Below the pieces are notes generated by a model. That model was given only the letters and a program-made list of their open reading frames with translations, was not told where the DNA came from and searched no databases. A stretch of 63,722 nt of DNA, the filler included, from Candidatus Rokuibacteriota bacterium (GTDB taxonomy: Bacteria; JAUVQV01; DATDCY01): assembly GCA_031406795.1 (NCBI GenBank). It is 5 parts of 5 records of this genome, joined end to end, with 100 filler letters (N's around TTAATTAATTAA, not from the genome) between each part and the next. Parts side by side here need not be neighbours in the genome. Positions count along the whole stretch, not along the records: positions 27,594 to 43,381 come from JANOHV010000066.1; 4 more parts are not named here. The stretch is one strand, 5' to 3'. Of the stretch, positions 27,494 through 43,481 are shown one piece after another. The translations under genes and the position numbers were made by a program. Each line of letters starts with the position of its first letter. The stretch's first letter is position 1.

Positions 27494-27593
27494 NNNNNNN
27501 NNNNNNNNNNNNNNNNNNNNNNNNNNNNNNNNNNNNNTTAATTAATTAANNNNNNNNNNNNNNNNNNNNNNNNNNNNNNNNNNNNNNNNNNNN
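27494..27593. other. Artificial contig linker
   Basis: N-run-TTAATTAATTAA-N-run (six-frame stop spacer). Confidence 0.98.
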
Positions 27594-28755
27594 CCTCGGC
27601 CGGGGCCTCTCGGCGGCGCTCGTGCGCGGCGGCCAGACCGAGAGCGCCCGCGACGCCGGCGCCGGCCTGCTCGAGGAGACGGTGGACACCGCCGCCGAGG
27701 CGCTGATGATCGTCAACGCCGGCGCCGCCGCGGCGCCCTGGTCGATCGAGATGCTGCCGCTCGGGCCGGGCGAACGCTCCGCGGCGATCACTCCCGCCGC
27801 GCCGCGCATCGGCACCTTCGCCGCCGCCGGGACCGCGAGAATCGCGATCGCCCCCGATGCCGGCGGCACTGCCCCGCTGCGCCTGCGGGCCGTGGGCGCC
27901 GAAGGGGTTCCCGCCTTCCTCGGCAACGACGGCCGGATCGTCGCCGGCGACGCCATCGTGGTCGGTTCCGGGGGAGAACTGCTGCTGCCCCACGGGCGCG
28001 GCCTGGCCGCCGTCTGGGTCGAGCGCGCCGGTGAGAACGTCTCCGGCCTCTGGGGCGCTGCCCCGCCCCCGCGCGAGCAGCCGATCGGCGCCGCCGGGAT
28101 CCTGCCCCTCACCGGGCCCTCGGCCGGTCTCGCTGCGAAGGTCGACCTCCCCTCCGTCCTGCACCTGAGCGCAGCCGACCCGCTCGTCGTCGTGATCCGC
28201 CGCCCCGCGGGGCCGCTCGAGGACTTCGTCCATCTCCCGGGAGCCCCCCTCGATGTCTACCTCGCCCCGGGCACCACCGCGCTCTGGCTGCGCACCGCCG
28301 CGGGCGGCGAGCTGCGCGGCAGCGCCGAAGTCCTGCTCTCCCCGGTCACCCCGATCGGCGAGGGCCCCGGCCCCGAAGTGCTGCTCGCGCCCGGGGCGGC
28401 CCGCTACTTCTCGTTCAACATCGAGCGCAAGGGCCCGCTCGGCATCGGAGTGCGCGCCGCCCCCGACACCGTCTCCTGCCGTCTCCTCGACGCCGCCGGA
28501 CGGACGATCGGCGAGGGGATCGTCCAGATGCCGAACCTCGCTCCCGGCTCCTATCTGCTCGCGGTGCGCGCGCCAGCAGACGGCGGCCCCGTCTCGGTGC
28601 GTCCGGCCCTCGCGGGGCTCGTCCCGCCGGGATCCGACCCACCAGCAGACATCGTGCGCCGCTATCTGGGCCTGAGCCGGGACGAACCCGAGAACGGAGG
28701 TCTAGCCGCGCCGGCATCCGCGCCGCAATGGCCCGGGACCGAAGAAGGGGATTGA
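27594..28755 (+). CDS. C-terminal part of a large hypothetical protein (beta-rich)
   Basis: Open frame from contig edge to stop at 28755 with coding-like codon usage; no recognised motif. Confidence 0.6.
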
Positions 28756-28764
28756 ACGGAAACC

Positions 28765-31023
28765 TCAATTCCCTCCGAAGAGCACGGGCGACTTGGCCGT
28801 CGATCGGTAGCGGCCAATCACCTCGCGCACCTCGTCGAGTCCCGCTCGGCCCGCCCCGCCCTTGATAACCGACTGGATCGATGCCTGCCTCGCGACGAAA
28901 TCAATCTCCTCAACGTGCATCGGCCAGCGCTCGACAAGCGTGACGAGTTCATCTTCGCGGATCCCATCGTTCCCCAGGCGCTCCTCCCAGCGACGAATTT
29001 GCACGTGCTCCGGCGGGTGCTCGAGCTTGAAGTGCAGGTTGAATTCGACGGGAAGCGGCTGCGGCTTGAGGGGATGCGTCACCATGCAGAAGAGCCCGGT
29101 GTGCGTGCGCAGTCTGGCTTTCAGGTCGTCGAGTTCAAAGTTCTTTTTGCCGTCGGATTCACCTTCGAGAAAGCGCCCGAGGTCGCCGCTGAAATCCATG
29201 AGCAGGGTCATGGCGTTCGCGCCGAGCGTCCTGGAGAACGCGTACTCCATCGGGGAGAGCTTCCGCTGTGTCAGCGGGTCAATCAGCCGGTCCGCCTCGG
29301 TTGACGACTGGAGCCGAGCGTAGATGAACGAGCGCACCTCGAGGCCGCACTCCCGTGCCAAAGCCTTTGCCGCAAGTTGTCCGGTGCCGAAGAACGGGGT
29401 GCTGATCAGAACGGTGAGGCCGAATCCTTCCCCCTTGAGTTGCTTCCAGGCGCGCGCTGCGCCCTGGAGGCCGTCCCGCTCCCGGTTACGAAGAAATAGA
29501 TCCGCGATGGTTCCTTGCGGTGCCGCGTATCGTTCGCAGATTCTCTCTTCGTCCGACGGCACGGGTTGCTGCAGGTCGACCGCCCGCACGAGTTGCTCCC
29601 GCGTAACACAGATTTTCCCATCCTCCCGCCTTGGCGACCGCGTCATCGCGAGCAGCATGCAGTTCTTGATCAGGCCGCCGGAGAGCTGGTAGCGGTCGGC
29701 GATCTTCGCGAGGTCGAGATCCGGGGCCAGTTCGAGCCTCTCAGGGAGAAGCGACTGCCACATGCGCAGCCGCGTGTCTGCATCCGGGATCGGGAATGCG
29801 ACCTTCATCGCGAAGCGCCGCTCCATCGCCGGGTCCAGGTCGACGGGCTTGTTGGTGGCCATGATGACGACGCATCGTGACTTCTCCAGCTCAATCAGCA
29901 GCGCCCTCCCCAGTCGCGAGTCGTTCGTGAACAGGTCGTCGCACTCGTCGAAGAGCACGATACCGCCCAGGGACTCCGCCTCGCGGAAGACCCTTGCCAG
30001 GACATCCTCCGGGTTGCCCCACTTGTCGAAGACGCTCACGGCGAGAGAGACGATCCGCCGGTCGAAGCGCAAGGCGAGCGCGCGAGCCATCATCGTCTTG
30101 CCGGTCCCCGGCGGCCCGTGGAAGAGCAGCGCCAGCCCGGTGCCGTAGCCGAAGAAGTCGTCCAGCTCGACGAGCCGCCCTGCGGCGCGATCCTCGAGAA
30201 AATTGCCAACGCAGGCGGCAACCTCCTCTTTCAGCCCATCCGGCAGGACGACCTGATCAAGGCTCACGGAACTGCGCTCCCACCGGATGAACCGCATCGA
30301 CGAACGATAGAGGTACCGGTCCCCGAGGATCTGGCGCACGAACCGCTCCTGCAATCTGATCTTCGTCCCCAGCAGATTCGTCGACTCCCCCACCCCGTCG
30401 ATCTGGAGGATCTCCTCCCCGATCAACGGCCTTTCCGTGCTGAAGTGGCGACGCGCCTCGACTTGTTCAAGGAAATCACGGCAGGCGAGCGACAGGATCG
30501 TCCCGATCAGCATGCCGTTGTGCAGGTCGTTCGTGTGCACGCCGACCTGCTCTGGCTCGAGGCGGCACCGCCTGAACGTCTCCATGAACCGCGGCGACGT
30601 GAACTGCATGAGCAGAAGCAGGAGCACCGCGCGCTCGACGGGACCGAGCCGCCGTTGTTGGCAAAATGCCTGAAAGAGCAGGTCGACGCCGTCCCGCTCT
30701 GAAGCCGCTTCCCGCAGGCGGTTCACGGCGGCCGTTTCCTCGAGCAGGACCTGCACACGTGCGACATCATTTCCGGCCGCCAGGAACGGAAAGAGCGCAC
30801 GAAATTCCGGCGACGACTCGTGACCGCCCGCAACCTCCCGCGGCAGATTCCGCAAATACCCGACGGCGAGCATCAGCGTGGCCTCTCGTTCCAGCGCCTC
30901 AAGGTGGTCGAGATTGTCGCGGAATGGTGCGTTTGACTCGCTACCCACCCACTCCAGATGTCCGAGCACGCCTTCGTCCTCGACACCTACTGCAACCCGC
31001 TGTTGCGCTGGCGCGGCGCTCAT
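28765..31023 (-). CDS. Tandem AAA+ ATPase (one intact, one degenerate module)
   Basis: GPPGTGKT, LFDECD, IMATN, AMERRF; second module lacks Walker A Lys; ATGA overlap with clpP stop. Confidence 0.85.
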   Translation of the reverse strand: MSAAPAQQRVAVGVEDEGVLGHLEWVGSESNAPFRDNLDHLEALEREATLMLAVGYLRNLPREVAGGHESSPEFRALFPFLAAGNDVARVQVLLEETAAVNRLREAASERDGVDLLFQAFCQQRRLGPVERAVLLLLLMQFTSPRFMETFRRCRLEPEQVGVHTNDLHNGMLIGTILSLACRDFLEQVEARRHFSTERPLIGEEILQIDGVGESTNLLGTKIRLQERFVRQILGDRYLYRSSMRFIRWERSSVSLDQVVLPDGLKEEVAACVGNFLEDRAAGRLVELDDFFGYGTGLALLFHGPPGTGKTMMARALALRFDRRIVSLAVSVFDKWGNPEDVLARVFREAESLGGIVLFDECDDLFTNDSRLGRALLIELEKSRCVVIMATNKPVDLDPAMERRFAMKVAFPIPDADTRLRMWQSLLPERLELAPDLDLAKIADRYQLSGGLIKNCMLLAMTRSPRREDGKICVTREQLVRAVDLQQPVPSDEERICERYAAPQGTIADLFLRNRERDGLQGAARAWKQLKGEGFGLTVLISTPFFGTGQLAAKALARECGLEVRSFIYARLQSSTEADRLIDPLTQRKLSPMEYAFSRTLGANAMTLLMDFSGDLGRFLEGESDGKKNFELDDLKARLRTHTGLFCMVTHPLKPQPLPVEFNLHFKLEHPPEHVQIRRWEERLGNDGIREDELVTLVERWPMHVEEIDFVARQASIQSVIKGGAGRAGLDEVREVIGRYRSTAKSPVLFGGN

Positions 31024-31598
31024 GCCCCACCCCGCTTCCGCACCGGCTCAACGCGGTCCGCGATGCCATGCTGGATCGCCTCCTCGGGCGTCAGCCAGGT
31101 GTCCACGTCGCGCAGCAGATACTTCTCCAGTTCGGCCTTGTCCTTGATGTTCGAGTACGCCAGGTAGTGCTGCAGGATGCGCTCGTGCTCCATATCCTCC
31201 GCCTTGCGGCCGGCAATCAACTGGCTGTGACTGCCGACGCTGAACGCCGAGAAACGGTGCGACAGGATCGAGGTGCGCGGCGTGATCACCCGACGGCCTT
31301 TCTCGCCGGTCATGAAGACCAGCAGCGCCATCGACGCAATCATTCCGATGCCGGTGGTGTATATCGGGATCCGCGACCACTCCATGATGTCGATGATCGA
31401 AAACCCCGCCGGGCAGGAACCGCCCGGGGAGTTGATCACCATCTGGATCTGGTTGACCTCCGCCTTGATGTTGTACTCGATGATCTCCTTGCAGACACTC
31501 TCCGCCATCCCGCCGTCGATCGCGCCGGAGATGTAGATGATCCCGAAGTCCTTCAGCCCCTGCTCTTTGCCCTTCTCCCGCTTCTCGCTCTCTGCCAT
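31020..31598 (-). CDS. clpP: ClpP-family serine protease paralog
   Basis: INSPGG, IASMA (Ser), SHRF (His), DTWLTPEEAIQHGIAD (Asp). Confidence 0.85.
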   Translation of the reverse strand: MAESEKREKGKEQGLKDFGIIYISGAIDGGMAESVCKEIIEYNIKAEVNQIQMVINSPGGSCPAGFSIIDIMEWSRIPIYTTGIGMIASMALLVFMTGEKGRRVITPRTSILSHRFSAFSVGSHSQLIAGRKAEDMEHERILQHYLAYSNIKDKAELEKYLLRDVDTWLTPEEAIQHGIADRVEPVRKRGGA

Positions 31599-31626
31599 GG
31601 CCCCTCCCTGGGTTGGTGAGTGACGC

Positions 31627-31660
31627 ATCATTCACTGGAGGGGTGACAAAACTGGACAAA
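31627..31660 (-). promoter_or_regulatory. Island promoter motif 1 (clpP-AAA)
   Basis: TGTCCAGTTTTGTCAC-N10-AATGAT. Confidence 0.65.
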
Positions 31661-31705
31661 GAAAGATCACCTGGATCATCGGCGATCCCGGGATCGGAAA
31701 CGGCC

Positions 31706-31800
31706 TTAGTCCTCGGCCCGTGCAAAGAAAGCAGACAGCCTGCGGTTCATTTCTGCCTTCATCTGCCGGATCGTCCCCTCCCTGGTTTGGTTCCTGGCAA
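31706..31800 (-). pseudogene. Deleted relic of the 34768..35370 gene
   Basis: Leader CCAAACCAGGGGAGG fused to GTIRQMKAEMNRRL.. C-terminus. Confidence 0.8.
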
Positions 31801-31801
31801 C

Positions 31802-31835
31802 CAGATACCGCGGAGGTGTGACAGATTTGGACAAA
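31802..31835 (-). promoter_or_regulatory. Island promoter motif 2
   Basis: TGTCCAAATCTGTCAC-N10-TATCTG. Confidence 0.65.
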
Positions 31836-31869
31836 GTTAGGCCATGGTTCGCGGCAAAATTTGCATTCA

Positions 31870-31894
31870 TATTATGACCATAGTATTATGACCA
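31870..31894 (+). promoter_or_regulatory. TA operator, direct repeat
   Basis: TATTATGACCA twice upstream of the antitoxin. Confidence 0.55.
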
Positions 31895-31915
31895 CAGACA
31901 GAACAGGAGGAAGCA

Positions 31916-32146
31916 ATGGTTCAGACGGTATCTAAATCCAAATTCAAGCCCCGTGCGCTGGAGTATTTCCGGAAGATCCAGGAAACCGGCGAGGAACTCG
32001 TCCTTACCGACCATGGCAAGCCGGTGTTGAAGATCACCGCCTTCAAGCCCGACCCCGCCGCATCGCTGAAATCGCTCAGGAACACCGTGGTGAAGTTCAC
32101 AGATCCCCTGCGGCCGACCGGTGAAGACTGGGATGCGTTGAAATGA
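31916..32146 (+). CDS. Phd/YefM-family antitoxin
   Basis: VSKSKFKPRALEYFR..GEELVLTDHGKPV. Confidence 0.85.
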   Translation: MVQTVSKSKFKPRALEYFRKIQETGEELVLTDHGKPVLKITAFKPDPAASLKSLRNTVVKFTDPLRPTGEDWDALK

Positions 32147-32538
32147 TCGTTCTGGATACGCACGTCTGGCTCTGGTGGGTCAGCAACCCGGAGCTTCTCT
32201 CCGCCGCGGCGCGGAAGACGATCGACCACGAGATGGTGGACGGAGAGATCGGTATTTCGTCCATCAGCGCCTGGGAAGTTGCGATCCTGGTGAAGAAGGG
32301 GCGTCTCGACCTCACGATGTCCGCCGGGGATTGGATCGCACGGTCCGAGGCGCTCCCCTTCCTCCGGTTCATCCCCGTGGATAACCGGATCGCCCTCAAG
32401 TCCGCGAACCTCCCCGGCCAGCTGCACGACGACCCCGCCGATCGCATCATCATCGCGACGACGATCACGCTCGGCGGCATTCTGGTCACGAAGGACGATA
32501 AGATCAGGAAATACCCTCACGTGCGTACGACCTGGTAG
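32143..32538 (+). CDS. PIN-domain (VapC) toxin
   Basis: IVLDTHVWLW, SAWEV, HDDPADRIIIATT, LVTKD. Confidence 0.9.
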   Translation: MIVLDTHVWLWWVSNPELLSAAARKTIDHEMVDGEIGISSISAWEVAILVKKGRLDLTMSAGDWIARSEALPFLRFIPVDNRIALKSANLPGQLHDDPADRIIIATTITLGGILVTKDDKIRKYPHVRTTW

Positions 32539-32609
32539 CTGCAGGTAGCTGATACCTGAGTTGGATGATACGTCCAGACACAACCGGCAAGAACAAATGG
32601 TCGTGATAG

Positions 32610-32641
32610 TGTCCGGAATTGTCACGACCTGGAATTACCTT
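32610..32641 (+). promoter_or_regulatory. Island promoter motif 3
   Basis: TGTCCGGAATTGTCAC-N10-TACCTT. Confidence 0.7.
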
Positions 32642-32754
32642 CCTTACCACACGCGGTTGGAATGCAGGGTGCGGCCTGGGGTAGCAGGGGCAATCTTGGC
32701 AACGATGATCTCGGGGCGAGAGCGGATAATCGACTTTTCGGAGGGGCACGGAAG

Positions 32755-33813
32755 ATGCTATACCAACTCGACCTCACCAGCGCAGCCGCAAGCAAAAAGG
32801 TCAAGCTAGAGCAACCTGCAGACTTGGGAATCCTTGAGAAGTATGTCGAGGATTTCTTTGCCACGCACATCCACGAGTTGATTCCCGAGGATCAGCTCAT
32901 GATAATCGCTCAAGAACGCAGCAGACAGGAAGAAGCCGACCTGCTTGCTCTCGACCGTAAAGGCGTGCTTTTCATTTTCGAACTCAAGCGATGGCAATCC
33001 AATCCAGAGAATCTCCTTCAGGTTATGCGATATGGACAGATCTTTGGCCGTTATAGCTATGAGGACCTTCAGGACCTGGCGCAGCGTCATAATAGACTGG
33101 AAGGCAGTTTGGCCAAAAAACACCGGGAGTATTTTGAATTAGACGAAGTTTTGCCGCAAACAGCATTCAATGCTGACCAAGTCTTTGTCGTAGTCACAAA
33201 CGGCGTCGACAAGGATACCTTAGGGGCGATTCAGTATTGGAAGAAGAAGAACGTCCGTATCGACTTCCTCACGTACAAGCTCTATTCCCTGGCTGGGAAA
33301 CCTCATTTGTACTACGACACCTATAACCCTGAGTTTGATGTCATCCAGGAGACAAATCCTGGCGTCTGCGTCGTCAATACGAACGTGAGTTATATGGAAG
33401 ATGCATGGCGGGATATGATGACTGCGCAGAAGGCGGCAGCCTATTACGACCGAAAGTATGCCGTTACCGGCATTCAGAAGGGCTTTACGGTGTATCTTTA
33501 TCACACGGGCGTCGGGGTCATAGCCAAAGGGAAGGCCAAAGGCCCCTATCGCAAAACAGATTTCGATGGCGACAAGGACGCTGAGTATTTCGTCCCGCTT
33601 ACTCTCGATTGGGCACTGAGCGATCCAGATAATTGGAAATACGCCATCACCGCGCGCGAAATCAACAAGAGAATGAATAGCGGTTACCGATTCAGGCAAA
33701 CTGTTTTCGGCATCGCGCCAGAAATGGCTGAAGCTATTGACTCTCTTTGGGAGCAGCACCAGAAGGAACTGGAATCCGCCTCTCACTCGAAGGCCATCCT
33801 CACTGAAATCTAA
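32755..33813 (+). CDS. NucS/Mrr-like PD-(D/E)xK endonuclease with PUA/EVE-like C-terminal domain
   Basis: LEKYVED, ADLLALD..IFELKR, QVMRY; C-terminal IQKGFTVYLYHTGVGVIAKG; AT-richer than flanks. Confidence 0.65.
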   Translation: MLYQLDLTSAAASKKVKLEQPADLGILEKYVEDFFATHIHELIPEDQLMIIAQERSRQEEADLLALDRKGVLFIFELKRWQSNPENLLQVMRYGQIFGRYSYEDLQDLAQRHNRLEGSLAKKHREYFELDEVLPQTAFNADQVFVVVTNGVDKDTLGAIQYWKKKNVRIDFLTYKLYSLAGKPHLYYDTYNPEFDVIQETNPGVCVVNTNVSYMEDAWRDMMTAQKAAAYYDRKYAVTGIQKGFTVYLYHTGVGVIAKGKAKGPYRKTDFDGDKDAEYFVPLTLDWALSDPDNWKYAITAREINKRMNSGYRFRQTVFGIAPEMAEAIDSLWEQHQKELESASHSKAILTEI

Positions 33814-33863
33814 TTGCCCTGCTGATGCGAATCCCAGCAGAGCGGTGCGCTATCGAGGGCAGA

Positions 33864-34107
33864 TCACCAGGTCGTGGAAACGGGGTAGCGCGAGATCTCC
33901 GGATCGGGTATCAGAATGGTGAGACCGTGCGCCGCCGCCTGACAGACCAGCATGCGGCCGAACGGATCCCGGTGGTAGTCCGGCAGCTTCGAGAGCTGAA
34001 GCACCGCCACTCTCCGCCATCCCGCCGTCGATGGCGCCGGAGATGTAGAGGATCCCGAAGTTCTTCAGCCCCTGCTCTTTGCCCTTCTGCTTCTCGCTCT
34101 CTGCCAT
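33864..34107 (-). pseudogene. Chimeric relic: clpP 5' end (34008-34107) fused to PIN toxin 3' end (33864-34007)
   Basis: Near-identical to 31496-31598 and 38082-38226 respectively. Confidence 0.85.
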
Positions 34108-34135
34108 GGCCCCGCCCTGGGTTGTTGTGTGCCTC

Positions 34136-34169
34136 ATCATTCACCCGGGACATGACAGAATCGGACAAA
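34136..34169 (-). promoter_or_regulatory. Island promoter motif 4
   Basis: TGTCCGATTCTGTCAT-N10-AATGAT. Confidence 0.6.
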
Positions 34170-34207
34170 CGAAGATCCCGCAGCCCTTCGTTCCCGTGGC
34201 GGTGACG

Positions 34208-34759
34208 TCAGTCTTCTTCGGGGAATACAAGATACCGCGGCGGGACCATTCGAGTGAGCCAGACACCGTTTTCGGATCTACAGAACATGTGCCCATCCTT
34301 ATTCATGGCCAACGCATCGATGGCAAGAACTACCGGCTTCCCGTGACGCTTGCCGACTTCGACCGCGGTTGATTCCGACGTAGAAAGATGGACGTACTGA
34401 CGAGAACCAGGAATCAGCCCCTTGGATCGAATCGAGCGAACGAAGCGCGTGGCCGTCCCGTGGAACAGAACTGCGGGCGGATCAGCCGGTGGTAGATGCA
34501 GATCCACCTCGATGGAGTGACCCTGATTCGCCCGGATGAAGCTGCCATCACCCTTCAATGCAAATCGCTGCTTTTCGCTCGTGCGTGCCACTTCAGCGAT
34601 GAGTCCCCTTGAAAGTGATCGGCCGTGGGCAGCCGCGAGGCGCACCAAATCATCAATATTCGCCCATCCTTCGTTGTCGAGCTGCAGGCCGATGACATCC
34701 GGGCGGTGCCGCAGAACGTGGCTCAGAAACTTGCTGATCGACTTGAGACGACTTGGCAT
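34208..34759 (-). CDS. kptA: RNA 2'-phosphotransferase (Tpt1/KptA)
   Basis: SKFLSHVLRHRP, KQRF, IRANQGHS, LFHGT, RQYVHLS, SENGVWL. Confidence 0.92.
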   Translation of the reverse strand: MPSRLKSISKFLSHVLRHRPDVIGLQLDNEGWANIDDLVRLAAAHGRSLSRGLIAEVARTSEKQRFALKGDGSFIRANQGHSIEVDLHLPPADPPAVLFHGTATRFVRSIRSKGLIPGSRQYVHLSTSESTAVEVGKRHGKPVVLAIDALAMNKDGHMFCRSENGVWLTRMVPPRYLVFPEED

Positions 34760-34767
34760 TACTTTGA

Positions 34768-35370
34768 CTATTTCTGCCCTGCCTGGACGAAGTAGGCCGG
34801 CAGTCTGCGGTTCATCTCTGCTTTCATCTGCCGAATCGTCCCCACGATCGCGGTGACCGCTGACGGCTCGCGCATGTCGATCTGCCTGGCGAATTTCCAA
34901 CTCGGCAGCGGAAGGTCCGTGCGGTCGTCGATGATGAAGCACGGCGTGATGTCGCCGGCATCCTTGTAGGCGGCCGCATAGTCCCGCCACATCTCCTCCC
35001 CGACCGAGTTCCGATCGAGAATCTGGATGAAGCACCCGTAAGCAAAGATGTCCGGATCGCCATCCGCACCCAAAATGATCTCGCAGTCGGTCTCCCGGCC
35101 GCACGCCGCCAGGGCTGCAAAGAGACCGCGGTACTTCTCCTCGCCATCGAACTGGCAGAAGATCGTCCGCCGCCACGGCAACTCGGAGATCGGCAGCGGA
35201 ACCCCATTCCCGGATGGGACGGCTGGATGCGCTTCAGCGGGTCCCGCTGCTGCGAGCGTTGCCATCCCGGCGGCCGCCACCGCCAGGTTCTTGATGAACG
35301 TTCGTCTCAGCTCTGTTCCCGATTCATCCCTGCCGCCTTTTCCATCAAGATGTTTCACTCTCACTGTCAT
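34768..35370 (-). CDS. Hypothetical protein with twin-arginine-like signal
   Basis: LRRTFIKNLAVAAAGMATLAAAGPAEA; RBS GGAGGAG. Confidence 0.7.
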   Translation of the reverse strand: MTVRVKHLDGKGGRDESGTELRRTFIKNLAVAAAGMATLAAAGPAEAHPAVPSGNGVPLPISELPWRRTIFCQFDGEEKYRGLFAALAACGRETDCEIILGADGDPDIFAYGCFIQILDRNSVGEEMWRDYAAAYKDAGDITPCFIIDDRTDLPLPSWKFARQIDMREPSAVTAIVGTIRQMKAEMNRRLPAYFVQAGQK

Positions 35371-35399
35371 AGCTCCTCCCTGGTTTGGTGCCTGGCATC

Positions 35400-35433
35400 C
35401 TGATACCGCTGATGTGTGACAGATTCAGACAAA
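35400..35433 (-). promoter_or_regulatory. Island promoter motif 5
   Basis: TGTCTGAATCTGTCAC-N10-TATCAG. Confidence 0.65.
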
Positions 35434-35469
35434 GTGGAGATCACAGCGAAGCCGATGCAGGTTCCCGAT

Positions 35470-35501
35470 TGTCTAAATATGTCACAGGTCGCCGCTACCC
35501 T
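35470..35501 (+). promoter_or_regulatory. Island promoter motif 6 (ftsZ-like)
   Basis: TGTCTAAATATGTCAC-N10-TACCCT. Confidence 0.7.
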
Positions 35502-35529
35502 CCATCGCAACTCCTTGGGAGGGGAAAGC

Positions 35530-36603
35530 ATGGATAACCTTCTGGACCGAAGGAAGTTCCTTCACCGTTCACTAACATATTGTTCGGGGCTGGCTGTTCT
35601 CATGGCCATGCCGTCCTTGGCAGGGGGACGAAAGATCTCTGCCTTTGGAGAAGTTCCAGTCGCAGTCAACGAATTCGAGATTACCGGCGCAGACATACGG
35701 GTCATCGGAGTCGGTTGCGGCGGATGCATTGCCCTGAATTCGATGATCGGCACCGGGATACCTGGGGTGAAGTACATCGCCGTCAACAGAGATGAGCAGG
35801 CGCTCGGTTCTTGCCTGGCAACAAACAAGCTCAATATCGGTTCAATCGCCAACGATGCCACCAACGCCGCTACCCAGCACGAATTCGGGCGTAAGGCAGC
35901 CGAAGCTCACTCCACGGTTATCGCCAAGGCAATACATGGGACTGACCTCCTCTTCATCGTCGCTGGGCTTGGTGGAAGCACCGGGACAGGGGCTGCACCG
36001 GTAATAGCCAAGATCGCCAAGGATCAGGGCATCCTCACCGCAGGCGTCGTGACGACGCCATTTCCTTTCGAAGGCGGTCGCCGGGCGAAGCAAGCGGCAG
36101 ATAGTCTTCGTATACTTGAAGATACCGCGAATTCGACAATCGTTGTGCCCAACACGGATCTTCTCACGATGATTGACCGCAAAGCGACGCTTCTTGATGC
36201 GTTCCGAATGGCGGATGACTCATTGTGCCAGGCGGTTGCCGGCATCTCCACGCTCTACACAATACCTGGTCTTTCCGATCCTGATTTCTACGACGTTCGA
36301 GCGGTGATAAATTTAATGCGGAGCGCCAGAGTGCGCCACGGCGTCGGCCAAGGCGTGAACCGTGCTGTGGCGGCCATGCAGCAGGCCATTAACTCTCCCC
36401 TCCTTGGCGCTGAAACCGTCGAAAGCGCAGCCGGTGTGATCCTCAATATCTCGTGCGGGCCGGATATCGGCCAGAACGAGGCCTTGAACGGAATTAGGCA
36501 CATCCAAGAGTTTGTCAGGGACTTTCTTCCGATTGTGTATGGGTTCAAGATATTTCCCGAACAGGCTGGCACAGTTGTGGCAACCATTATCGCTGGCCGA
36601 TAA
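35530..36603 (+). CDS. ftsZ: Divergent FtsZ paralog with Tat-like leader and no C-terminal tail
   Basis: IRVIGVGCGG, AGLGGSTGTGAAPVIA, TTPFPFEGGRR, DAFRMAD, PGLSDPDFYDV; leader DRRKFLH. Confidence 0.85.
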   Translation: MDNLLDRRKFLHRSLTYCSGLAVLMAMPSLAGGRKISAFGEVPVAVNEFEITGADIRVIGVGCGGCIALNSMIGTGIPGVKYIAVNRDEQALGSCLATNKLNIGSIANDATNAATQHEFGRKAAEAHSTVIAKAIHGTDLLFIVAGLGGSTGTGAAPVIAKIAKDQGILTAGVVTTPFPFEGGRRAKQAADSLRILEDTANSTIVVPNTDLLTMIDRKATLLDAFRMADDSLCQAVAGISTLYTIPGLSDPDFYDVRAVINLMRSARVRHGVGQGVNRAVAAMQQAINSPLLGAETVESAAGVILNISCGPDIGQNEALNGIRHIQEFVRDFLPIVYGFKIFPEQAGTVVATIIAGR

Positions 36604-36694
36604 TGGAGCATCGAGGTGTGGCACGGCAGGAATTTATCCTTTCACCTGAGACCGCTGGGGCGGCCGTCCTCAGCAACGGATGGAGGTGCTTTGC

Positions 36695-36985
36695 GTGGCG
36701 AGGTTCGAAAACCACTGCGCCGAGAGTTCGAGGATGTTCGGCAGCCCTTTTGCCGAAGTCCATCGCTGGCTCGACGAGTTCGCCGGATCGCCCGAACACG
36801 GCATGCGCCACCGCAGGAAGCGCCACCACCTGGCGGGCATCGAGGAAGTGGCAAAGCGCTTCGGTGAAGATGCGCGCGCCGCAGCGAGGCAGCACGTGAT
36901 CACGGATCTGCAGGAAGAGGGTTGGACGGAGCGAGACCGGTTCCCGGTCGACGAGCGCGACTACGTGAAGATGGGGTTCTTTTAG
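36695..36985 (+). CDS. Small His-rich hypothetical protein (DUF6915-like)
   Basis: VHRWLDE..HRRKRHHLAGIEE..QHVITDL; GGAGG before GTG at 36695. Confidence 0.6.
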   Translation: MARFENHCAESSRMFGSPFAEVHRWLDEFAGSPEHGMRHRRKRHHLAGIEEVAKRFGEDARAAARQHVITDLQEEGWTERDRFPVDERDYVKMGFF

Positions 36986-37014
36986 AAACACGGGAAATGA
37001 CGGCCGAGGCCTCG

Positions 37015-37046
37015 TGTCAGGAAATGTCACAGGTCGGCGCTATTCT
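37015..37046 (+). promoter_or_regulatory. Island promoter motif 7 (dnaA-like)
   Basis: TGTCAGGAAATGTCAC-N10-TATTCT. Confidence 0.7.
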
Positions 37047-37074
37047 TGTCGCTCCAATTAGGGAGGGTTAGAGC

Positions 37075-37974
37075 ATGAGCTGCACCTTTGATCGGCGGAT
37101 GTTCCTGAAGAGGTTCGGGGCGCTTGGGGCCGGACTCGGCGCTTTCATTGCCGAGCCATCCCACGCGTGGAGTCGAATTACTGGCTTGGCGCAGAGTGCA
37201 CCGGACACCTGCGATACCGCGCGCATCTCAACATCGGCGGGAGGCAGTATCCGATCGTCGAATTTGATGAGGAACATGACATTCGACAGCTTCGTTCCTG
37301 GCGAGAGTAATCGACTCGCATTTGAGGCAGCAATGGCCGTTGCCGACCGCCCGGCGCCCCGCTGGAACCCGTTGGTCATCTATGGTGGAGTTGGGCTCGG
37401 CAAGACGCACCTGCTTCATGCCATTGGAAACCGCTTCCTCGAGCGCAATCCCGGTTCGGGAGTCATGTACTTCTCCTCTGAAACCTTTATTAACGATTTG
37501 ATCAACTCGATCCGCTATGATCGCATGGGCTCGTTCCGAAGCCGGTACCGGCAATTAGACCTGCTCCTCGTCGACGACATCCAGTTCATCGCGGGTAAAG
37601 AGAAGACCCAGGAGGAGTTCTTCCACACCTTCAACTCAGTCCACGAGTTGCACAAGCAACTCGTGCTCACCAGCAGCAAGATGCCGCGTAAGATCCCCGA
37701 TCTCGACGAATGCCTTCGCTCCCGGTTTCATGGCGGCCTCACCGTTTCAATCAACGCTCCTGAAAATGATCTACGGCTGGCCATCGTCCACCAAAAGGCA
37801 GAATATTGTGGCGCCAGATTTCCAGAGAATGTTAAGCGCTATATTGCGGCGCGGCCGAAAGCACAATGCATTAGGTCCTTGGAAGGGGATGTCATACGTC
37901 TAAACGCATATTCATGTCTGGACGAGAAGAAAATCGACCTGGCATATGCGCGAGAAATCCTCGAGAGAATGTAA
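37075..37974 (+). CDS. DnaA domain-III-only paralog with Tat-like leader
   Basis: TFDSFVPGESN, NPLVIYGGVGLGKTHLLHAIGN, LLVDDIQFIAGKEKTQEEFFHTFN, LRSRF, IRSLEG; no domain I or IV; leader DRRMFLK. Confidence 0.85.
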   Translation: MSCTFDRRMFLKRFGALGAGLGAFIAEPSHAWSRITGLAQSAPDTCDTARISTSAGGSIRSSNLMRNMTFDSFVPGESNRLAFEAAMAVADRPAPRWNPLVIYGGVGLGKTHLLHAIGNRFLERNPGSGVMYFSSETFINDLINSIRYDRMGSFRSRYRQLDLLLVDDIQFIAGKEKTQEEFFHTFNSVHELHKQLVLTSSKMPRKIPDLDECLRSRFHGGLTVSINAPENDLRLAIVHQKAEYCGARFPENVKRYIAARPKAQCIRSLEGDVIRLNAYSCLDEKKIDLAYAREILERM

Positions 37975-38081
37975 CACCCGGCGGGTCACGAACCCGAGGG
38001 GAGGAGCAAAGAAAATGCTTTATCAACTCGACCCACAGTTGACGCGAATCCCCAGCAGGACGGAACTCTATCTGGGTCAGC

Positions 38082-38468
38082 TCACCAGGCCGTGGCAACG
38101 GGGTAGCGAGAGATCTCCGGGTCGGGTGTCAGAATGGTGAGACCGTGGGCCGCCGCCTGGCAGACCAGCATGCGGTCGAACGGGTCCCGGTGGTAGTCCG
38201 GCAACTTCGAGAGCTGAAGCACCGCGGTCTCGTCGAGGGCGAGCGCCTCGATGCGGTGCCGCCGGCGCTGCTCCGGCACGAACTCATGCGGAGGCCGGGG
38301 AAGCGGCAGGCGCCCGAGCGCGTGCTTGACGATGATCTCCCAGGTGGAGACGGAACTCAGAAAGACCTCGTTCGACGCATCGGAGAACAGATCTCTCGCA
38401 ACCCCCGAGAGCGCCGCATCCCCGGAGGCGATCCAGAGGAAGGCGCAGGTGTCGAGCAGCAGCCTCAC
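38082..38468 (-). CDS. PIN-domain (VapC) toxin
   Basis: LLLDTCAFLW, STWEI, HRDPFDRMLVCQA. Confidence 0.9.
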   Translation of the reverse strand: MRLLLDTCAFLWIASGDAALSGVARDLFSDASNEVFLSSVSTWEIIVKHALGRLPLPRPPHEFVPEQRRRHRIEALALDETAVLQLSKLPDYHRDPFDRMLVCQAAAHGLTILTPDPEISRYPVATAW

Positions 38469-38710
38469 CCGCGCTCCCCGCGGAAACCGGCGAGCGTCTC
38501 TTCCGGCAACGGCTCGAAGAAACTCGCCGGAACCGTGAAGGTGCCCGCGGCAAGCCCGATCGGGCGCCGCTTGGCGTTATGCCGGGGAAGCAGCCGTATC
38601 TCGGCGATCGGCGCATTGCGTTTGCACAGGATGATGCGCTCGTCGCCCTTCAATCGCGCAAGGTACGCGGAGAGGTGCGTCTTTGCGTCGTGCATATTTA
38701 CCTTAATCAT
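38465..38710 (-). CDS. Phd/YefM-family antitoxin
   Basis: MIKVNMHDAKTHLS..RPIGLA..FFEPLP; TTGACA-17-CACTAT promoter just upstream. Confidence 0.85.
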   Translation of the reverse strand: MIKVNMHDAKTHLSAYLARLKGDERIILCKRNAPIAEIRLLPRHNAKRRPIGLAAGTFTVPASFFEPLPEETLAGFRGERG

Positions 38711-38813
38711 GGTTCGATAGTGAACTAACAACATGGTCGTGTCAACCACCAGTGACGGGTTTCTGCCTGACGGCCCGGCAGCGTGAGATGCTTGACCGGG
38801 TATAATCCCGGCG

Positions 38814-39527
38814 ATGCTCACCCTGCAGAAACCGACAATCAGCACTCCGCGCGACTGCGAGTACCTTCCCGGCCGCCTAGCGCGCACGGAATACTTTCTC
38901 GCGCAGGAAGTGCTCCCAGCGGAACTCGACATGCTGCTGGAGTCGGGATGGCGCAAGTTCGGGTATCTCTTCTTCAGGCCGGCGTGCGGCGACTGCAGGG
39001 CGTGCGTGCCGCTGCGCATACCAGTCGCGAATTTCTTGCCCTCCAAGAGCCAGCGCCGCACCATCCGCAAGGGCGCCGCCATGGCAGTGACCTTCAAACG
39101 ACTCGAATTGAACGCGGAGGTCTTCGCTGTCTTCAGCGACCACGCGAAATCACGATTCAACCAGACCCTCGCGGCGAACGAATTCGTCCAGAGTTTTTAC
39201 CTCACCGCCTGCCCGGGTCTCCAGTCGGAGTATCGGCTCGACGATGCGTTGGTGGCGGCCGGATTCCTCGACCGATCGGAACGCGGGCTGAGCAGCGTCT
39301 ATTTCGCCTTCCGAGCCACTGCAGCCAGCTACCGCCCAGGCGTGCTCAGTGTGCTTGCCGAGATCGAATACGCCGGCAGCTGGGGACTGGAATACTGCTA
39401 CCTGGGTTATTGGATAGCCGCGAACCCGCGCATGGCCTACAAGGCCGCGTTCCGCCCGCACCAGCTGTACGACTGGGAGAGCAGGGTCTGGCGCGATGCG
39501 GCTTCCTGCTGCGGCCCGCCGGCTTGA
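38814..39527 (+). CDS. Arginyl-tRNA-protein transferase family (Ate/Bpt)
   Basis: CEYLP, GWRKFG, RPACGDCRAC, SKSQRR, LSSVY, YLGYWI, MAYK. Confidence 0.85.
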   Translation: MLTLQKPTISTPRDCEYLPGRLARTEYFLAQEVLPAELDMLLESGWRKFGYLFFRPACGDCRACVPLRIPVANFLPSKSQRRTIRKGAAMAVTFKRLELNAEVFAVFSDHAKSRFNQTLAANEFVQSFYLTACPGLQSEYRLDDALVAAGFLDRSERGLSSVYFAFRATAASYRPGVLSVLAEIEYAGSWGLEYCYLGYWIAANPRMAYKAAFRPHQLYDWESRVWRDAASCCGPPA

Positions 39528-39617
39528 CGGCCCGCTTCGATCAGGGGCGCCCGCGGTGTGACGGATCCTGAGGATGGGGTTCTTCCGGCGCTACGGATGG
39601 TGGCGGCCCCAACCGAG

Positions 39618-39649
39618 TGACAGGAAATGTCACGATGCTGCGTTAGCCT
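39618..39649 (+). promoter_or_regulatory. Island promoter motif 8 (upstream of Mre11/Rad50-like genes)
   Basis: TGACAGGAAATGTCAC-N10-TAGCCT. Confidence 0.65.
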
Positions 39650-39779
39650 CTCCTCGATTAGCTCACGCCATCGGACCTGGACTCCCGCGACGACGCGGAG
39701 CTTTCCCACGACTTGCCGCGCAATTCGTTGTATCGTCTTGGTTGGCGACACTGCATGAGTCACCCGAAATGAGGGAACC

Positions 39780-40916
39780 ATGAACAAAGTCCGCTTCCTG
39801 CACACCTCCGACTGGCAGCTCGGCATGCGCCGTCACTTCCTGGGCGACGAGGCGCTCCCGCGGTACATGCAGGCGCGCGTCGACGCGGTCCGCGCACTGG
39901 CCCGCATCGCCGCCGAGGAGCGCTGCGAGCTGGTCGTCGTGGCCGGCGACGGGTTCGAGTCGAATCATGTCGACCGGCTGACGGTCGGCCGCGCTCTCGG
40001 TGCGCTCAAGGAGATCCCCTGTCCCGTCTACGTGCTCCCCGGGAACCACGACGCGTTCGACGCCGCCGGAGTCTACCGCTCCCCGGAGTTTCGCCACGGG
40101 AGGGCGGGGCACATCCACATCCTGGAGTCGAACACTCCCGTGCCAGTACGTCCCGGTCTCGAGATCGTCGGGGTGCCGTGGATGACCAAGCACCCGCGTC
40201 GCGACCTCGTGGCGGAGGCCCTGAAGAACTTGGAGCCCTTCCCGGGGGGCCACCGACTCTGCGTGGCGCACGGGATCATCGAGGGGCTCTCCCCCGACCA
40301 GACTGACCCCGCCGTCATCTCCCGGCGGCAGGCCGAGGCGGCGCTGGCCGACGGGAGGATCCACTTCCTCGCCCTCGGCGACCGCCACTCGACGACCGAA
40401 GTCGCGCCGCGCATCTGGTACTCGGGCACGCCGGAGACCACCGACTTCGGCGAACTCGATCCCGGGAACGTTCTCGTCGTCGAACTCGACGGCGACACGT
40501 GCCGAGTCGAGCGGCGCCGCACCGGCACCTGGCGCTTCCTGGACATCGCCCACGACGTGACGTCGGCCGAGGAGGTCCAGGCGCTGGCAGCGAAGCTGGA
40601 CGCTCTCCCCGACAAGGACCGCACCATCGTCAAGCTCAGCCTGCGCGGCACGCTGAATCTGCGCGCGAAGGGGATGCTCGACGATAGCCTCGAGCGATTC
40701 CGGCACCTCTTCGCCGCGGTCGAGCTCTGGGAGCGGCACACCGACATCCGCGTCCTTCCCGACGGCTTCGATTTTGGCGACCTCGGGCTCTCGGGGTTCG
40801 CGAAGCAGGCCCTGGACACCCTCTCCGTCGAAGCCGGCGGCTCCAGCCCCGACACCGGCACGGCACGCGACGCCCTCGCGCTCCTCTACCGGCTCTCCGG
40901 GGGAGGCCGCCAATGA
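39780..40916 (+). CDS. Mre11/SbcD-like metallophosphoesterase nuclease
   Basis: HTSDWQLG, AGDGFE, PGNHD, AHG, ALGDRH, YSGTPE. Confidence 0.9.
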   Translation: MNKVRFLHTSDWQLGMRRHFLGDEALPRYMQARVDAVRALARIAAEERCELVVVAGDGFESNHVDRLTVGRALGALKEIPCPVYVLPGNHDAFDAAGVYRSPEFRHGRAGHIHILESNTPVPVRPGLEIVGVPWMTKHPRRDLVAEALKNLEPFPGGHRLCVAHGIIEGLSPDQTDPAVISRRQAEAALADGRIHFLALGDRHSTTEVAPRIWYSGTPETTDFGELDPGNVLVVELDGDTCRVERRRTGTWRFLDIAHDVTSAEEVQALAAKLDALPDKDRTIVKLSLRGTLNLRAKGMLDDSLERFRHLFAAVELWERHTDIRVLPDGFDFGDLGLSGFAKQALDTLSVEAGGSSPDTGTARDALALLYRLSGGGRQ

Positions 40917-43381
40917 GAATCCTCCGGCTCCGGATCAAGGATTACCGCGGAGTCGCCGACCGCACGCTCGATTTCGATCCCGCCGGGGTCACCGTCGTTG
41001 AGGGGCCGAACGAGAGCGGGAAGTCCTCCCTCGCCGAGGCGATCGACCTGCTCTTCGAGCACCCCGACTCCAGCCGCAAGCAGGCGGTGCTGCAGACCAA
41101 GCCCGTCGACAGGGACGCGGGGCCTGAAATCGAGGCCGAGATCACCGCCGGCCCCTACCATTTCGTCTATCGGAAGCGCTTCATCCGCAAGCCGGAGACG
41201 ATCCTCGAGGTGAAGTCTCCACGAAAGGAGCACGCCACGGGCCGGGAAGCGCACGACCGCGTGCGCGCCATCCTCGCGGAGACGGTCGACGGCGACCTCT
41301 GGAAGGCGCTGCGCGTCAACCAGGGCGACCTCCTGGGCCGGGTTCCCGTCGGCAAGATCGCCTCCCTGGGTAACGCCCTGGACCGCGCCGCCGGCAAGGA
41401 GACTGCCGGGGAGCGGGAGCAGACGCTCTTCGAGGCGGTGGTGGCGGAGTACCGCAGGTATTTCACCGAGAGCGGGCTGGAAAACAAGGAGCTGCGGGCG
41501 TCCGCCGAGCGGATCGCTGAACTCGAAGACCTCGTCGCGAAGACCAGCGCCGATCTCAAGACCATGCAGCAGGACGTGGACAGGAGCGAAGCCATCGCCA
41601 TTGCGATTCCCGAGCTGAAGCGCGTGTCCGCCGAGGCGGGCGAGCTCGCCGTCCGACGCGAAGCGGAGCGCCTCGAGGTCGACAAGCGGGAGGCCGAGGT
41701 CCAGCGGCTGGAACTCGCGGAACAGAATGCCCGCATGGCCGAAACCGCCGCCGTCCAGCACGCGGCCGACCGTGAGTCGCTCGTCCGAAAGGTGGAGGAG
41801 GTACAGCAGCAGCGGCGCCGGCTCGAGGCGGAAGCCGCCACGGAGCAACCCGCGCTAGTTGATGCGAAAGCGCGATGCGAAGCTGCCACCGGGAGCCTGG
41901 CGACAGGCGAAGCGGCGGTCGGCGAGGCCGAGGCCGCGCTTGCGCTGCGCGAGCGGGACTTCGAGTACCAGCGTGCCAGGCTCGATCTCGAACAGCTCCG
42001 CGAACGGCGGGCACGGATCGAGGAGGCCCGGCAGCGCGCCGCGTCGGCCAGGGAGTTCCTCGATCGCACCCGGATCACGGACGAGATCGTGCGGCGCATC
42101 CGCGAGTGCCACCTCGACCTGGAGAAGGCCCAGGCGCTCCTGGATGCCGGCGGCCCCCGCCTGCGCGTGACGGCTCTCTCGCCCTTCGCGGCCGAGATCG
42201 ACGGGGTCCCCGAGAGCCTGGAGGAGCACCAGGTCCTCGAGCGCACCGTGCCCGGCCAGACGGTCCTGCGGATACCCGGCACGGCCGAGATCGTCGTGTC
42301 GGCGGGCACGAGCGTCGAGAACCTCCTCGCCGCGCGAGACAAGGCCGGCCGCGCGCAGGAGGAAGCGCTCGGCCGCGCCGGCGTGAGGGACATGGAGGCC
42401 GCCGAGCGCGAGAACGAGCGCCGCCGGGAGTCCGAGCGGGTGGCCGAGGCGAGCGAAGTCTCCGTCAGGGTGGACCTCCGCGACCTCACCCTGGACGCGA
42501 TGACGGAGAAGATCATCAGCCTCGCCTGGGCGGAAGACTACCCAGCCCAGCGCCCGGCATCCCCCCCACTCATGCCGGACCTCGACTCGGCGGAAGTTGC
42601 GCGCAGGGAGGCCAAGGAGACCCTCGGCCGAACCCAGGCGGACCGTGACTGCGCGCGGGAGGAAGTCCTGGCCGCCGAGAAGCGGGGCAACCACCTGGCG
42701 AGCCGCCTGCAGGAGAAGACGCTCGAACTTCGGCTCTCCGCGCTATCGGAGAAGCAGGCGACCGCCGAACTCGCTGCGACGCGGGAACAGAAGCCCGACG
42801 ATGATCTCGCGACGGCCTTGAACCTGGCCCGGGAGCGCGCACGGACCTCGGCAACCAGCCTCCAGGAGGCCAGGGCCGCGTTGAAGTCCGCGAACCCGGA
42901 GCTGGTGCGCCAGCTGGCGTCCAACGCGAAGAAGGCGGAGCAGGCGGCCGCGCAGCGCCTGCGCGCAGCCGAGGACGAGTTGCGCGACGTCGCCGCCCGC
43001 CTCGAGCTGCAAGGTGAACGCGGCCTTTTCGATGCCCTCGAGGACGCGCAGTCGCGCCTGGAGCACGCTCGACGGGACCACCGCAGCCTCACGGCGCGCG
43101 CGGCAGCGGCGCGTCTGCTCTTCGTGAGCTTTCGGGATGCGCGGGATGCATCCCGCCGCGCCTACCAGGCGCCGCTGCGAGACAAGATCGTCTCCCTGGG
43201 GCGTTTTGTCTTCGACGAAACGTTCGGGGTCGAACTCGACGAGGACCTCGCCATCGGCACACGGACCCTGCAGGGGGTGACCCTTCCCTTCGACAGCCTC
43301 AGCGTCGGTGCCCAAGAGCAGCTCTCCCTCATCGCCCGCCTCGCCTGCGCCCTCCTCGTCAGTCAGGACGACGGCGTCCCC
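40913..43381 (+). CDS. Rad50/SbcC-like coiled-coil ATPase (3'-truncated by contig end)
   Basis: GPNESGKSS Walker A, long coiled coil, LSVGAQEQL signature. Confidence 0.88.
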
Positions 43382-43481
43382 NNNNNNNNNNNNNNNNNNN
43401 NNNNNNNNNNNNNNNNNNNNNNNNNTTAATTAATTAANNNNNNNNNNNNNNNNNNNNNNNNNNNNNNNNNNNNNNNNNNNN
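43382..43481. other. Artificial contig linker
   Basis: N-run-TTAATTAATTAA-N-run. Confidence 0.98.

Follow-up and report, generated by a model that had tools for sequence, protein, structure and literature searches.

The bacterial cell cycle has two master assemblies, DnaA and FtsZ, both of them textbook cytoplasmic proteins. Regulators that consist only of a DnaA-derived AAA+ module are known in the form of Hda, whose clamp-binding motif is N-terminal and of the QL[SP]LPL type, and FtsZ paralogues without a tail exist both as experimental truncations and in nature. Substrates of Tat, the twin-arginine translocation route, are likewise known, and the combination of the two described here, a DnaA-derived module behind a Tat signal, is new. 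The gene in question lies at 37075-37974 (+) in a 63,722-nucleotide stretch of DNA, referred to below as the window, from a sediment bacterium assigned to Candidatus Rokuibacteriota (assembly GCA_031406795.1). Its product, P0001, is an AAA+ module that derives from DnaA: the DnaB/self-interaction domain (I) and the DNA-binding domain (IV) have been lost, and a twin-arginine signal peptide has been acquired. Our favoured reading is that P0001 may be a Tat-targeted, non-propagating mimic of a DnaA protomer; taken as a whole chain, up to and including the step at which it would poison a DnaA oligomer, this is held tentatively and at less than even confidence. Five separate contigs make up the window, with runs of N between them, so that genes on either side of an N mark are not neighbours, and the piece that carries the DnaA-like gene spans 27594-43381 (15,788 bp). 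The joints, at 27494-27593, 43382-43481, 58258-58357 and 60491-60590, consist of paired 44-N runs with 12 bases between them.

The open reading frame (ORF) of the DnaA-like gene is intact and encodes 299 amino acids, and it is very probably a real gene under selection. A Shine-Dalgarno sequence read from the DNA, AGGGAGGG, lies at 37060-37067 (+) and ends 7 nt before the ATG. The protein begins with a twin-arginine signal peptide (residues 1-31; 37075-37167, +), assigned from the TIGR01409 model, the motif and the hydropathy, followed by a Ser/Thr-rich linker (residues 32-64; 37168-37266, +) and by DnaA AAA+ domain III (residues 65-299, which together with the stop codon occupy 37267-37974, +). 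The linker is predicted to be disordered, with AlphaFold2 (AF2) confidence, expressed as the predicted local distance difference test (pLDDT), below 50 over residues 18-60. The AF2 model, made from a 53-sequence alignment, has a helix at residues 7-22, then the disordered linker, and then an AAA+ fold with a pLDDT of around 85 at residues 61-200 and of 83-92 at residues 231-299; it is unsure at residues 206-222, the Box VII stretch.

The only Pfam family found in P0001 is Bac_DnaA (PF00308; residues 65-224, E 4.6e-63). The NCBIfam model TIGR00362 aligns residues 54-298 with profile positions 99-337 of 437, which is the domain III part alone, and the score of 307.5 bits is under the equivalog cut-off of 343.9. 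The nearest full-length DnaA, P0003, aligns through its residues 105-343 with 37240-37971 (residues 56-299 of P0001) at 61% identity. A first-pass annotation of this DNA had placed the stop just ahead of domain IV, with nothing of that domain after 37974, and this is borne out: P0001 stops at a position that corresponds to E. coli residue 366, within the linker that leads to domain IV, and 107 nt separate the stop from the next gene. Neither domain IV (PF08299) nor domain I (PF11638) gives a Pfam match in P0001, and tblastn across the whole window with the corresponding domains of P0003 recovers neither domain IV (best E 0.24) nor domain I (best E 0.051, elsewhere in the window). The same annotation had noted the lack of a replication-locus setting, and here too it stands, as there is no dnaN among the window ORFs scanned (including 37 further ORFs), and DnaA boxes (TTATCCACA, up to one mismatch) number 2 in the window against 2.9 expected, which is chance level.

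In place of domain I stands the leader, as had been proposed. On TIGR01409, which has a cut-off of 16.7, residues 6-30 reach 18.0 bits. In its passages on the signal peptide, PMC7317946 describes an S-R-R-x-F-L-K motif, a Gly-rich and weakly hydrophobic h-region of at least 12 residues, and an AxA-type cleavage site. The P0001 leader agrees with that description: it has D-R-R-M-F-L-K at residues 6-12, a Gly/Ala-rich h-region (FGALGAGLGAFI) of at least 12 residues with a mean Kyte-Doolittle hydropathy of 1.79, and S-H-A at residues 29-31 before the predicted cleavage. The leader is taken as translated, since no purine-rich ribosome-binding site precedes the internal Met codons 65 and 68. An RR-x-hydrophobic-hydrophobic motif with an h-region is found in only 3 of the 51 window ORFs, and the three adjoin one another, being the DnaA-like gene, a gene for an FtsZ paralogue and a gene for a 200-aa protein. 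The earlier treatment of the leader as incidental does not fit a signal that passes the model, is conserved, and recurs in the same kind on two adjacent genes. Judged from its sequence, P0001 is probably a genuine Tat substrate, and the signal predicts that it leaves the cytoplasm, the site of DnaA filament formation. No tat genes were seen among the window ORFs scanned.

Compared with E. coli K-12 DnaA, with which it shares 45% identity (residue i corresponds to E. coli i+68), P0001 keeps the Walker A lysine K110 (K178), the Walker B aspartates D167/D168 (D235/D236), the arginine finger R217 (R285), the sensor-2 arginine R267 (R334) and, as AID equivalents, R159 and L222. The sensor-1 aspartate has been replaced by serine (S201 = D269) and the Box VII arginine by cysteine (C213 = R281); the Glu-Trp after the Box VII arginine (H219, G220) and the glutamate after the sensor-2 arginine (S268) are also altered. 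The part of PMC4245941 that deals with these residues describes R281, R285, R227 and L290 as DnaA surface residues crucial for inter-protomer contacts, and states the roles of R281 and D269. With the ATP site and most inter-protomer residues kept, and with the Box VII arginine, the sensor-1 aspartate and domains I and IV gone, the pattern in P0001 is what a non-propagating protomer might be expected to look like.

Domain III had been called highly canonical, a description that holds for the intact Walker A and B motifs, arginine finger and sensor-2 arginine, and for residues 65-200, which are 74% identical to P0003. It does not hold for residues 201-299, where identity to P0003 is 45%, nor for the near-invariant positions as a group: a set of 111 full-length relatives gives 114 positions with conservation of at least 95%, and P0001 differs at 25 of these, the sensor-1 aspartate and Box VII arginine included, whereas canonical DnaAs deviate at 0.77 of them on average and at 16 at most. 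Among 1,057 canonical pairs with equal identity in the N-part, identity in the C-part is 67.6 +/- 6.1% and does not fall below 53% in any pair, such that the C-terminal third of P0001 has evolved much faster than that of any canonical DnaA pair.

P0001 is best described as an offshoot of DnaA that has evolved fast but under constraint, and not as an Hda. In a FastTree phylogeny of domain III, P0001 and its one environmental relative (P0002/P0241, described below) form a clade (support 0.997, stem 0.38) that is nested in a 26-sequence clade of full-length DnaAs, with root-to-tip distances of 0.82 and 0.75 for the pair against 0.43 +/- 0.15 for the others. Matches in the Protein Data Bank (PDB) give DnaA at E 5.9e-73 and Hda at E 6.7e-16, and on the Hda model TIGR03420 the protein (E 2.6e-29) fails with 102.3 against an equivalog cut-off of 194.8. 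The model result and the nesting among full-length DnaAs uphold the suggestion that the protein arose independently of Hda, and the reported lack of an Hda-type clamp motif is also confirmed: a beta-clamp-binding motif is absent from the N-terminus, and the sole QLxLxL-like match in P0001, QLDLLL at residue 160, lies within the Walker B strand.

These results bear on a reading of P0001 as a cytoplasmic, Hda-like regulator that damps DnaA oligomerisation in normal cell-cycle control, its N-terminus merely resembling a Tat signal. Like Hda, the protein has domain III only and an intact arginine finger, and its ATP-binding base is close to that of canonical DnaA at the 74% identity given above. 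The failed Hda model and the missing clamp motif count against such a regulator, as do a leader that exceeds the Tat cut-off, is conserved and has counterparts on two neighbours. The protein is also rare, and its gene, with a foreign base composition, sits in a lower-GC, repeat-scrambled island among toxin-antitoxin and defence-candidate genes (described below), where a housekeeping regulator of the kind first envisaged would hardly be expected. We consider this reading improbable.

Relatives with the architecture of P0001 are few. Among the best 120 of 8,000 scored matches, which include P0001 itself, 111 are DnaAs of at least 420 aa with around 44-62% identity, and only P0002 (217 aa, 76% identical) is built like P0001; it scores 16.1 bits on TIGR01409, just under the cut-off. 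P0241 is P0002 with four further residues, belongs to the same 90% cluster and is found on contigs of up to 3,050 bp. A phmmer search with residues 1-70 against 1.84 billion representatives returned P0002 alone (E 1.8e-22), which puts the leader-plus-linker in one other cluster only. A word-index search with residues 1-66 returned just the query, a scan of viral contigs gave no relatives, and a distant blastn search against plasmids found just the conserved dnaA and ftsZ cores. The one locus from a genome contig scan with residues 1-70 (L001) was rejected, being a stretch of 26 residues matched by chance in a Planctomycetota locus with no relation to this one.

The alignment of P0001 with P0241 is gapless for 204 residues, with identity at 24 of 32 positions in the signal, 24 of 32 in the linker and 107 of 140 in the AAA+ base, and the two proteins have five derived residues in common (Y68M, Q80R, Y97W, F101V and D201S). 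Their differences fall at 11 of 77 conserved and 22 of 63 variable canonical DnaA sites (Fisher p 0.005), and this avoidance of the conserved sites argues for purifying selection since the two split. After residue 204 the homology ends (0 of 17 identical); from a comparison of the P0241 tail with the other frames of the DnaA-like gene, a frameshift, a different end and an assembly effect all remain candidates.

The second component of the locus is the FtsZ paralogue (P0121, 357 aa), encoded at 35530-36603 (+), around 1.5 kb upstream of the DnaA-like gene, with Tubulin/FtsZ and FtsZ_C domains. It carries the leader MDNLLDRRKFL...PSLA (start MDNLLDRRKFLHRSLTYCSGLAVLMAMPSLA) and ends directly after FtsZ_C, without a C-terminal linker or tail; canonical FtsZ relatives extend a median of 68 residues beyond this end. 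The best of those canonical relatives, one of them named Candidatus Methylomirabilia, are around 53% identical. Two environmental proteins, P0123 and P0137, are 50-51% identical to P0121 and keep both the leader and the C-terminal end, with identity at 22-23 of 33 leader and 153-154 of 301 core positions. Out of 96 near-invariant FtsZ positions, 26-27 are altered in each of these three proteins, against a canonical mean of 1.1, and the altered loops are T1 and T3 in P0121 and T3 and T7 in the other two. When metagenome contigs were scanned with the N-termini of the three FtsZ-like proteins, 80 loci came back, all of them canonical FtsZ with a core identity of at most 44%, and neither the leader nor a DnaA-like gene was found in these loci. 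The FtsZ paralogue may be the more solid half of the pair.

Leaders of Tat type on three adjacent genes, kept in relatives, also fit an alternative in which Tat exports the 200-aa protein along with the DnaA and FtsZ cores, possibly with nucleotide bound, and all three cooperate in a new function outside the cytoplasm, for instance as a periplasmic scaffold, polymer or binding module that has no link with replication. A typical passenger of Tat, according to the same passages of PMC7317946, is a protein that takes up a non-covalent cofactor in the cytoplasm. The loss of the cytoplasmic partner domains is in keeping with such a role, and the degenerate catalytic and interface loops of the FtsZ-like proteins, along with Box VII and sensor-1 in P0001, would suit a site with no supply of nucleoside triphosphates (NTPs). 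Nevertheless, the Walker A and B motifs and the stretch at 160-195 are almost canonical despite the long branch, which is unexpected if nucleotide turnover is irrelevant; the genes are placed among the conflict-type cassettes of a variable island and not among envelope genes; and a full-text literature search found no precedent, with no report of a Tat-tagged DnaA or AAA+ initiator module or of FtsZ as a Tat passenger. We regard this alternative as worth keeping in view, if rather unlikely.

The DnaA-like and FtsZ-like genes are further connected by a shared upstream element, TGTC-N6-TGTCAC. Allowing up to one mismatch, there are 11 matches against 2.4 +/- 1.6 in shuffled sequences, with 0 of 100 shuffles reaching 11, and 9 of the matches (8 sites) fall within 31643-39633. 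The copy at 37015-37030 (+; repeat D7) is 44 nt before the DnaA-like ATG, the copy at 35470-35485 (+) is at the equal spacing of 44 nt before the FtsZ-like ATG, and the 200-aa gene has its own copy at 35416-35431. Overall, four genes (ClpP-like, 200-aa, FtsZ-like and DnaA-like) have the end of the element 44-45 nt ahead of their start codons, and an alignment of seven upstream regions stays in register as far as a GGGAGG ribosome-binding site. A palindromic variant, TGACAGGAAATGTCAC, is present at 39617-39633, upstream of an SbcD-like gene. The sequence TGTCAC(A) resembles the -35 element of promoters of the extracytoplasmic function (ECF) group ECF41, as these are given in the relevant part of PMC3426412. 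An ECF41-type CGTC -10 at 16 nt is exact only before the ClpP-like gene, and since the -10 is not consistently present the likeness is a lead only. No sigma-factor gene was seen, scans for sigma-70 promoters and terminators gave chance-level results, and the contig has no Rfam families or tRNAs.

The locus is a variable island of conflict or mobile type and not a cell-cycle locus. GC content is 0.48-0.60 across some 31.3-38 kb against 0.62-0.76 on the flanks, and GC content at third codon positions (GC3) is 0.66 in the DnaA-like gene and 0.61 in the FtsZ-like gene against 0.8-0.9 in flanking genes. Direct repeats D1-D6 (81-96% identical) reveal two tandem paralogous units, at 31496-34007 and 34008-38225, that share junctions and differ in cargo: unit A holds a Phd/PIN pair and a PDC-S11-like gene, and unit B holds KptA, the 200-aa protein, the FtsZ-like gene, DUF6915 and the DnaA-like gene. 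The left-hand junction of the 4.2-kb unit (33833-34177, no strand assigned) consists of a D1 copy at 33833-34007, which is a vapC 3' fragment, and then a duplicated ClpP-like 5' fragment (D3, D2); the right-hand junction (38000-38225, +) consists of a 34-nt D6 copy of the ribosome-binding site and start of the PDC-S11-like gene and then the 175-nt D1. The DnaA-like stop is 26 nt short of this junction, so that the point at which domain IV is lost is also a cassette boundary. The region 31496-38225 looks like a cassette-swapping hot spot, whose neighbours also include VapBC and an SbcCD-like pair, and the DnaA-like gene would be one of several cassettes in a recombining island of lower GC, each of them preceded by the shared element and by a strong ribosome-binding site.

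Another alternative is that the DnaA-like gene is decaying debris, a fragment of a duplicated or transferred dnaA lying between recombination junctions, open by chance and without function. Clear fragments do occur in the island, namely the ClpP-like 5' end, the vapC 3' end and the first 34 nt of the PDC-S11-like gene. The changes at near-invariant positions favour decay, as do a C-terminal third far more diverged than in canonical pairs, the great rarity of the family, and the loss of homology to P0241 after residue 204. Against decay stand the 204 codons that remain gapless relative to a 76%-identical relative, with substitutions biased away from conserved sites, and the leader, in which every Tat feature is kept in both relatives. 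The gene furthermore has a strong Shine-Dalgarno sequence and its own copy of the upstream element, and the partner FtsZ family is intact from end to end at around 50% divergence. That the DnaA-like gene is evolutionary flotsam is therefore a real chance, albeit on balance an unlikely outcome.

The assembly of the gene is supported by public sequencing runs. From a first study, a 14,667-nt contig reproduces 34000-37397 and a 3,904-nt contig reproduces 37608-39000, including the DnaA-like stop codon, both with 0 differences. A 167-nt record matches 37381-37547, also with 0 differences. None of the records listed for the locus is from RNA. From a second, different study, a 345-nt contig spans 37036-37380, and so the Shine-Dalgarno sequence, the leader, the linker and the start of domain III, with a single change, C to T at 37080, which is the third base of codon 2 and synonymous. 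Only the second study counts as independent, because the source of the window may itself be among the first study's runs. Positions 37548-37607 are outside the listed exact contigs of the public runs and inside 37340-37673, where DnaA genes of many organisms pile up. A chimeric origin of the gene was considered and rejected: depth is equal on both sides (9.46 and 9.6), P0002 spans the leader to residue 204, and the 3' part is without domain IV and is not canonical in its own right.

Returning to P0001 as a mimic of a DnaA protomer, the following sequence of events may be envisaged. P0001 would fold and bind nucleotide in the cytoplasm, as the intact Walker A, Walker B and sensor-2 residues suggest, and would then be recognised by the Tat translocase through its signal peptide and normally be cleared from the cytoplasm. 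A molecule that remained could dock on a DnaA-type oligomer, where no working initiation complex would be built, owing to the missing domains I and IV, the cysteine in place of the Box VII arginine and the serine in place of the sensor-1 aspartate. Initiation would be blocked only where and when P0001 meets DnaA, for example where export has failed or is saturated, and the FtsZ paralogue could have a like effect on FtsZ polymers.

Several of the observations weigh against this account. A working Tat signal moves P0001 away from its supposed target, and the model needs a hypothetical conditional step to bring the two together. With the equivalents of the arginine finger, L290 and R227 intact, P0001 might still propagate a filament instead of capping one. 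The GC3 of the gene is foreign, and the donor's DnaA may for that reason not resemble that of the host. The rarity of the leader-plus-linker, the speed at which the C-terminal third has evolved, the end of homology to P0241 after residue 204, which could mean decay, and the gene fragments at the joints of the island (ClpP-like, vapC and PDC-S11-like) all point in the same unfavourable direction.

In a more specific proposal, which is speculative and which we think quite unlikely, the Tat-tagged DnaA and FtsZ cores would be export-gated poison subunits, made constantly and harmless for as long as Tat, which is driven by the proton-motive force, exports them. If membrane energy or Tat collapsed, as upon phage attack or severe stress, the cores would be retained, would cap DnaA and FtsZ, and would stop the initiation of replication and division. 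Should this be true, it would constitute a new switch for conflict or dormancy, in which polymer mimics are the toxins and protein export is the antidote. A different use of the same parts would be a secreted antagonistic effector, with poisoned DnaA and FtsZ subunits exported against related competitor cells. The residue pattern of a poison subunit, the export signals and the conflict-type island are compatible with an effector; by contrast, only a 33-aa linker precedes the AAA+ core, with no translocation or receptor-binding domain, no immunity or secretion-system gene is present on the contig, and there is no known route from the periplasm of one cell to the cytoplasm of another. This last proposal appears highly improbable.

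The interest of the locus lies in the reduction of both DnaA and FtsZ to their nucleotide-binding, polymerising cores, each with a conserved twin-arginine signal, side by side and with a shared element. If the proteins are exported, they would be the first NTP-binding cell-cycle modules known as Tat passengers, and the role of such folds outside the cytoplasm would come into question. If they act inside the cell, they would be natural dominant-negative protomers, with design lessons for the capping of DnaA and FtsZ polymers. If they are debris, they would exemplify the sampling of essential-gene fragments by recombining islands.

The remaining genes of the island are varied. Between the FtsZ-like and DnaA-like genes, a small DUF6915 protein is encoded at 36680-36985 (+), its nearest Atlas clusters being mostly viral. 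The 200-aa protein (34768-35370, -) is divergent from the FtsZ-like gene, belongs to no known family and has a Tat signal of 21.8 bits; in an Atlas search with it every score was below 0.8, and the clusters concerned were made up of short Tat-signal fragments, and an AF2 model from the single sequence was unusable (pLDDT 40.7). Downstream of it on the same strand, at 34208-34720 (-), lies a homologue of the KptA/Tpt1 RNA 2'-phosphotransferase (PF01885, E 7.9e-43). The PDC-S11-like gene at 32755-33813 (+) encodes P0250, a 352-aa protein with no Pfam family that matches the PADLOC candidate PDC-S11 at E 1.1e-21, with a GC content of 0.48-0.52. At 28765-31631 (-), a 752-aa winged-helix and AAA protein with an IetA match (E 1.7e-16) has after it a protease of the ClpP family with a likeness to the prohead proteases of phages (phrog_94, E 1.5e-25), and the two may represent an IetA-with-ClpP variant of the IetAS pair.

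Further observations concern the other contigs of the window. A single 1,919-aa ORF at 48134-53893 (+) contains UvrA-type ABC ATPase, UvrA interaction and UvrA DNA-binding domains, and is about twice the length of an ordinary UvrA. On a different contig, the stretch at 5125-11295 has a tyrosine integrase followed by a region of lower GC3 with an NTP_transf_8 nucleotidyltransferase and a PIN/Phd pair, and is perhaps a further integrated element. The last two contigs, both short, carry between them, within 59677-62889, a group II intron reverse-transcriptase/maturase fragment at 59680-60468 (-) and an IS110-family transposase at 61765-62886 (+).

Among known systems, chromosomal DnaA is the closest to P0001 in sequence. 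The two have domain III in common, with the 61% identity noted earlier, the same fold and the same ATP-site, arginine-finger and AID residues. They differ in that P0001 is without domains I, II and IV, has the sensor-1 aspartate and Box VII arginine replaced, has no dnaN or DnaA-box neighbourhood and scores below the TIGR00362 cut-off. With Hda and HdaA it shares the state of a short DnaA-related AAA+ module standing alone with an arginine finger (R217, E. coli R285), and by analogy it is proposed to resemble them in acting on DnaA rather than on DNA. Unlike Hda, P0001 fails the Hda model, nests within the DnaAs, has no N-terminal clamp motif, bears a Tat signal, and is island-borne and rare. 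The DnaC/IstB-type helicase loaders, including the DnaC-like proteins of phages, are also stand-alone AAA+ modules of the initiator clade, and P0001 matches them weakly (IstB_IS21, E 9.7e-8; phrog_50, E 1.5e-15), whereas it is far closer to DnaA, has a DnaA-type initiator-specific motif (ISM) and Box motifs, and lacks a helicase-binding N-domain. The sole PADLOC match of P0001, to mad8 (E 9.7e-7), is a weak one of the generic P-loop kind and falls short of the defence model. The tail-less FtsZ variants are the counterpart for P0121, which like them retains only the tubulin/FtsZ GTPase and FtsZ_C, and which differs from them in its conserved RR leader and altered T1 and T3 loops. Finally, P0001 shares with Tat substrates the DRRMFLK motif, the Gly/Ala-rich h-region, a small-x-small cleavage site and a TIGR01409 score above the cut-off; the known substrates, however, are mainly redox-cofactor enzymes and envelope proteins, whereas the passenger here is an AAA+ initiator module.

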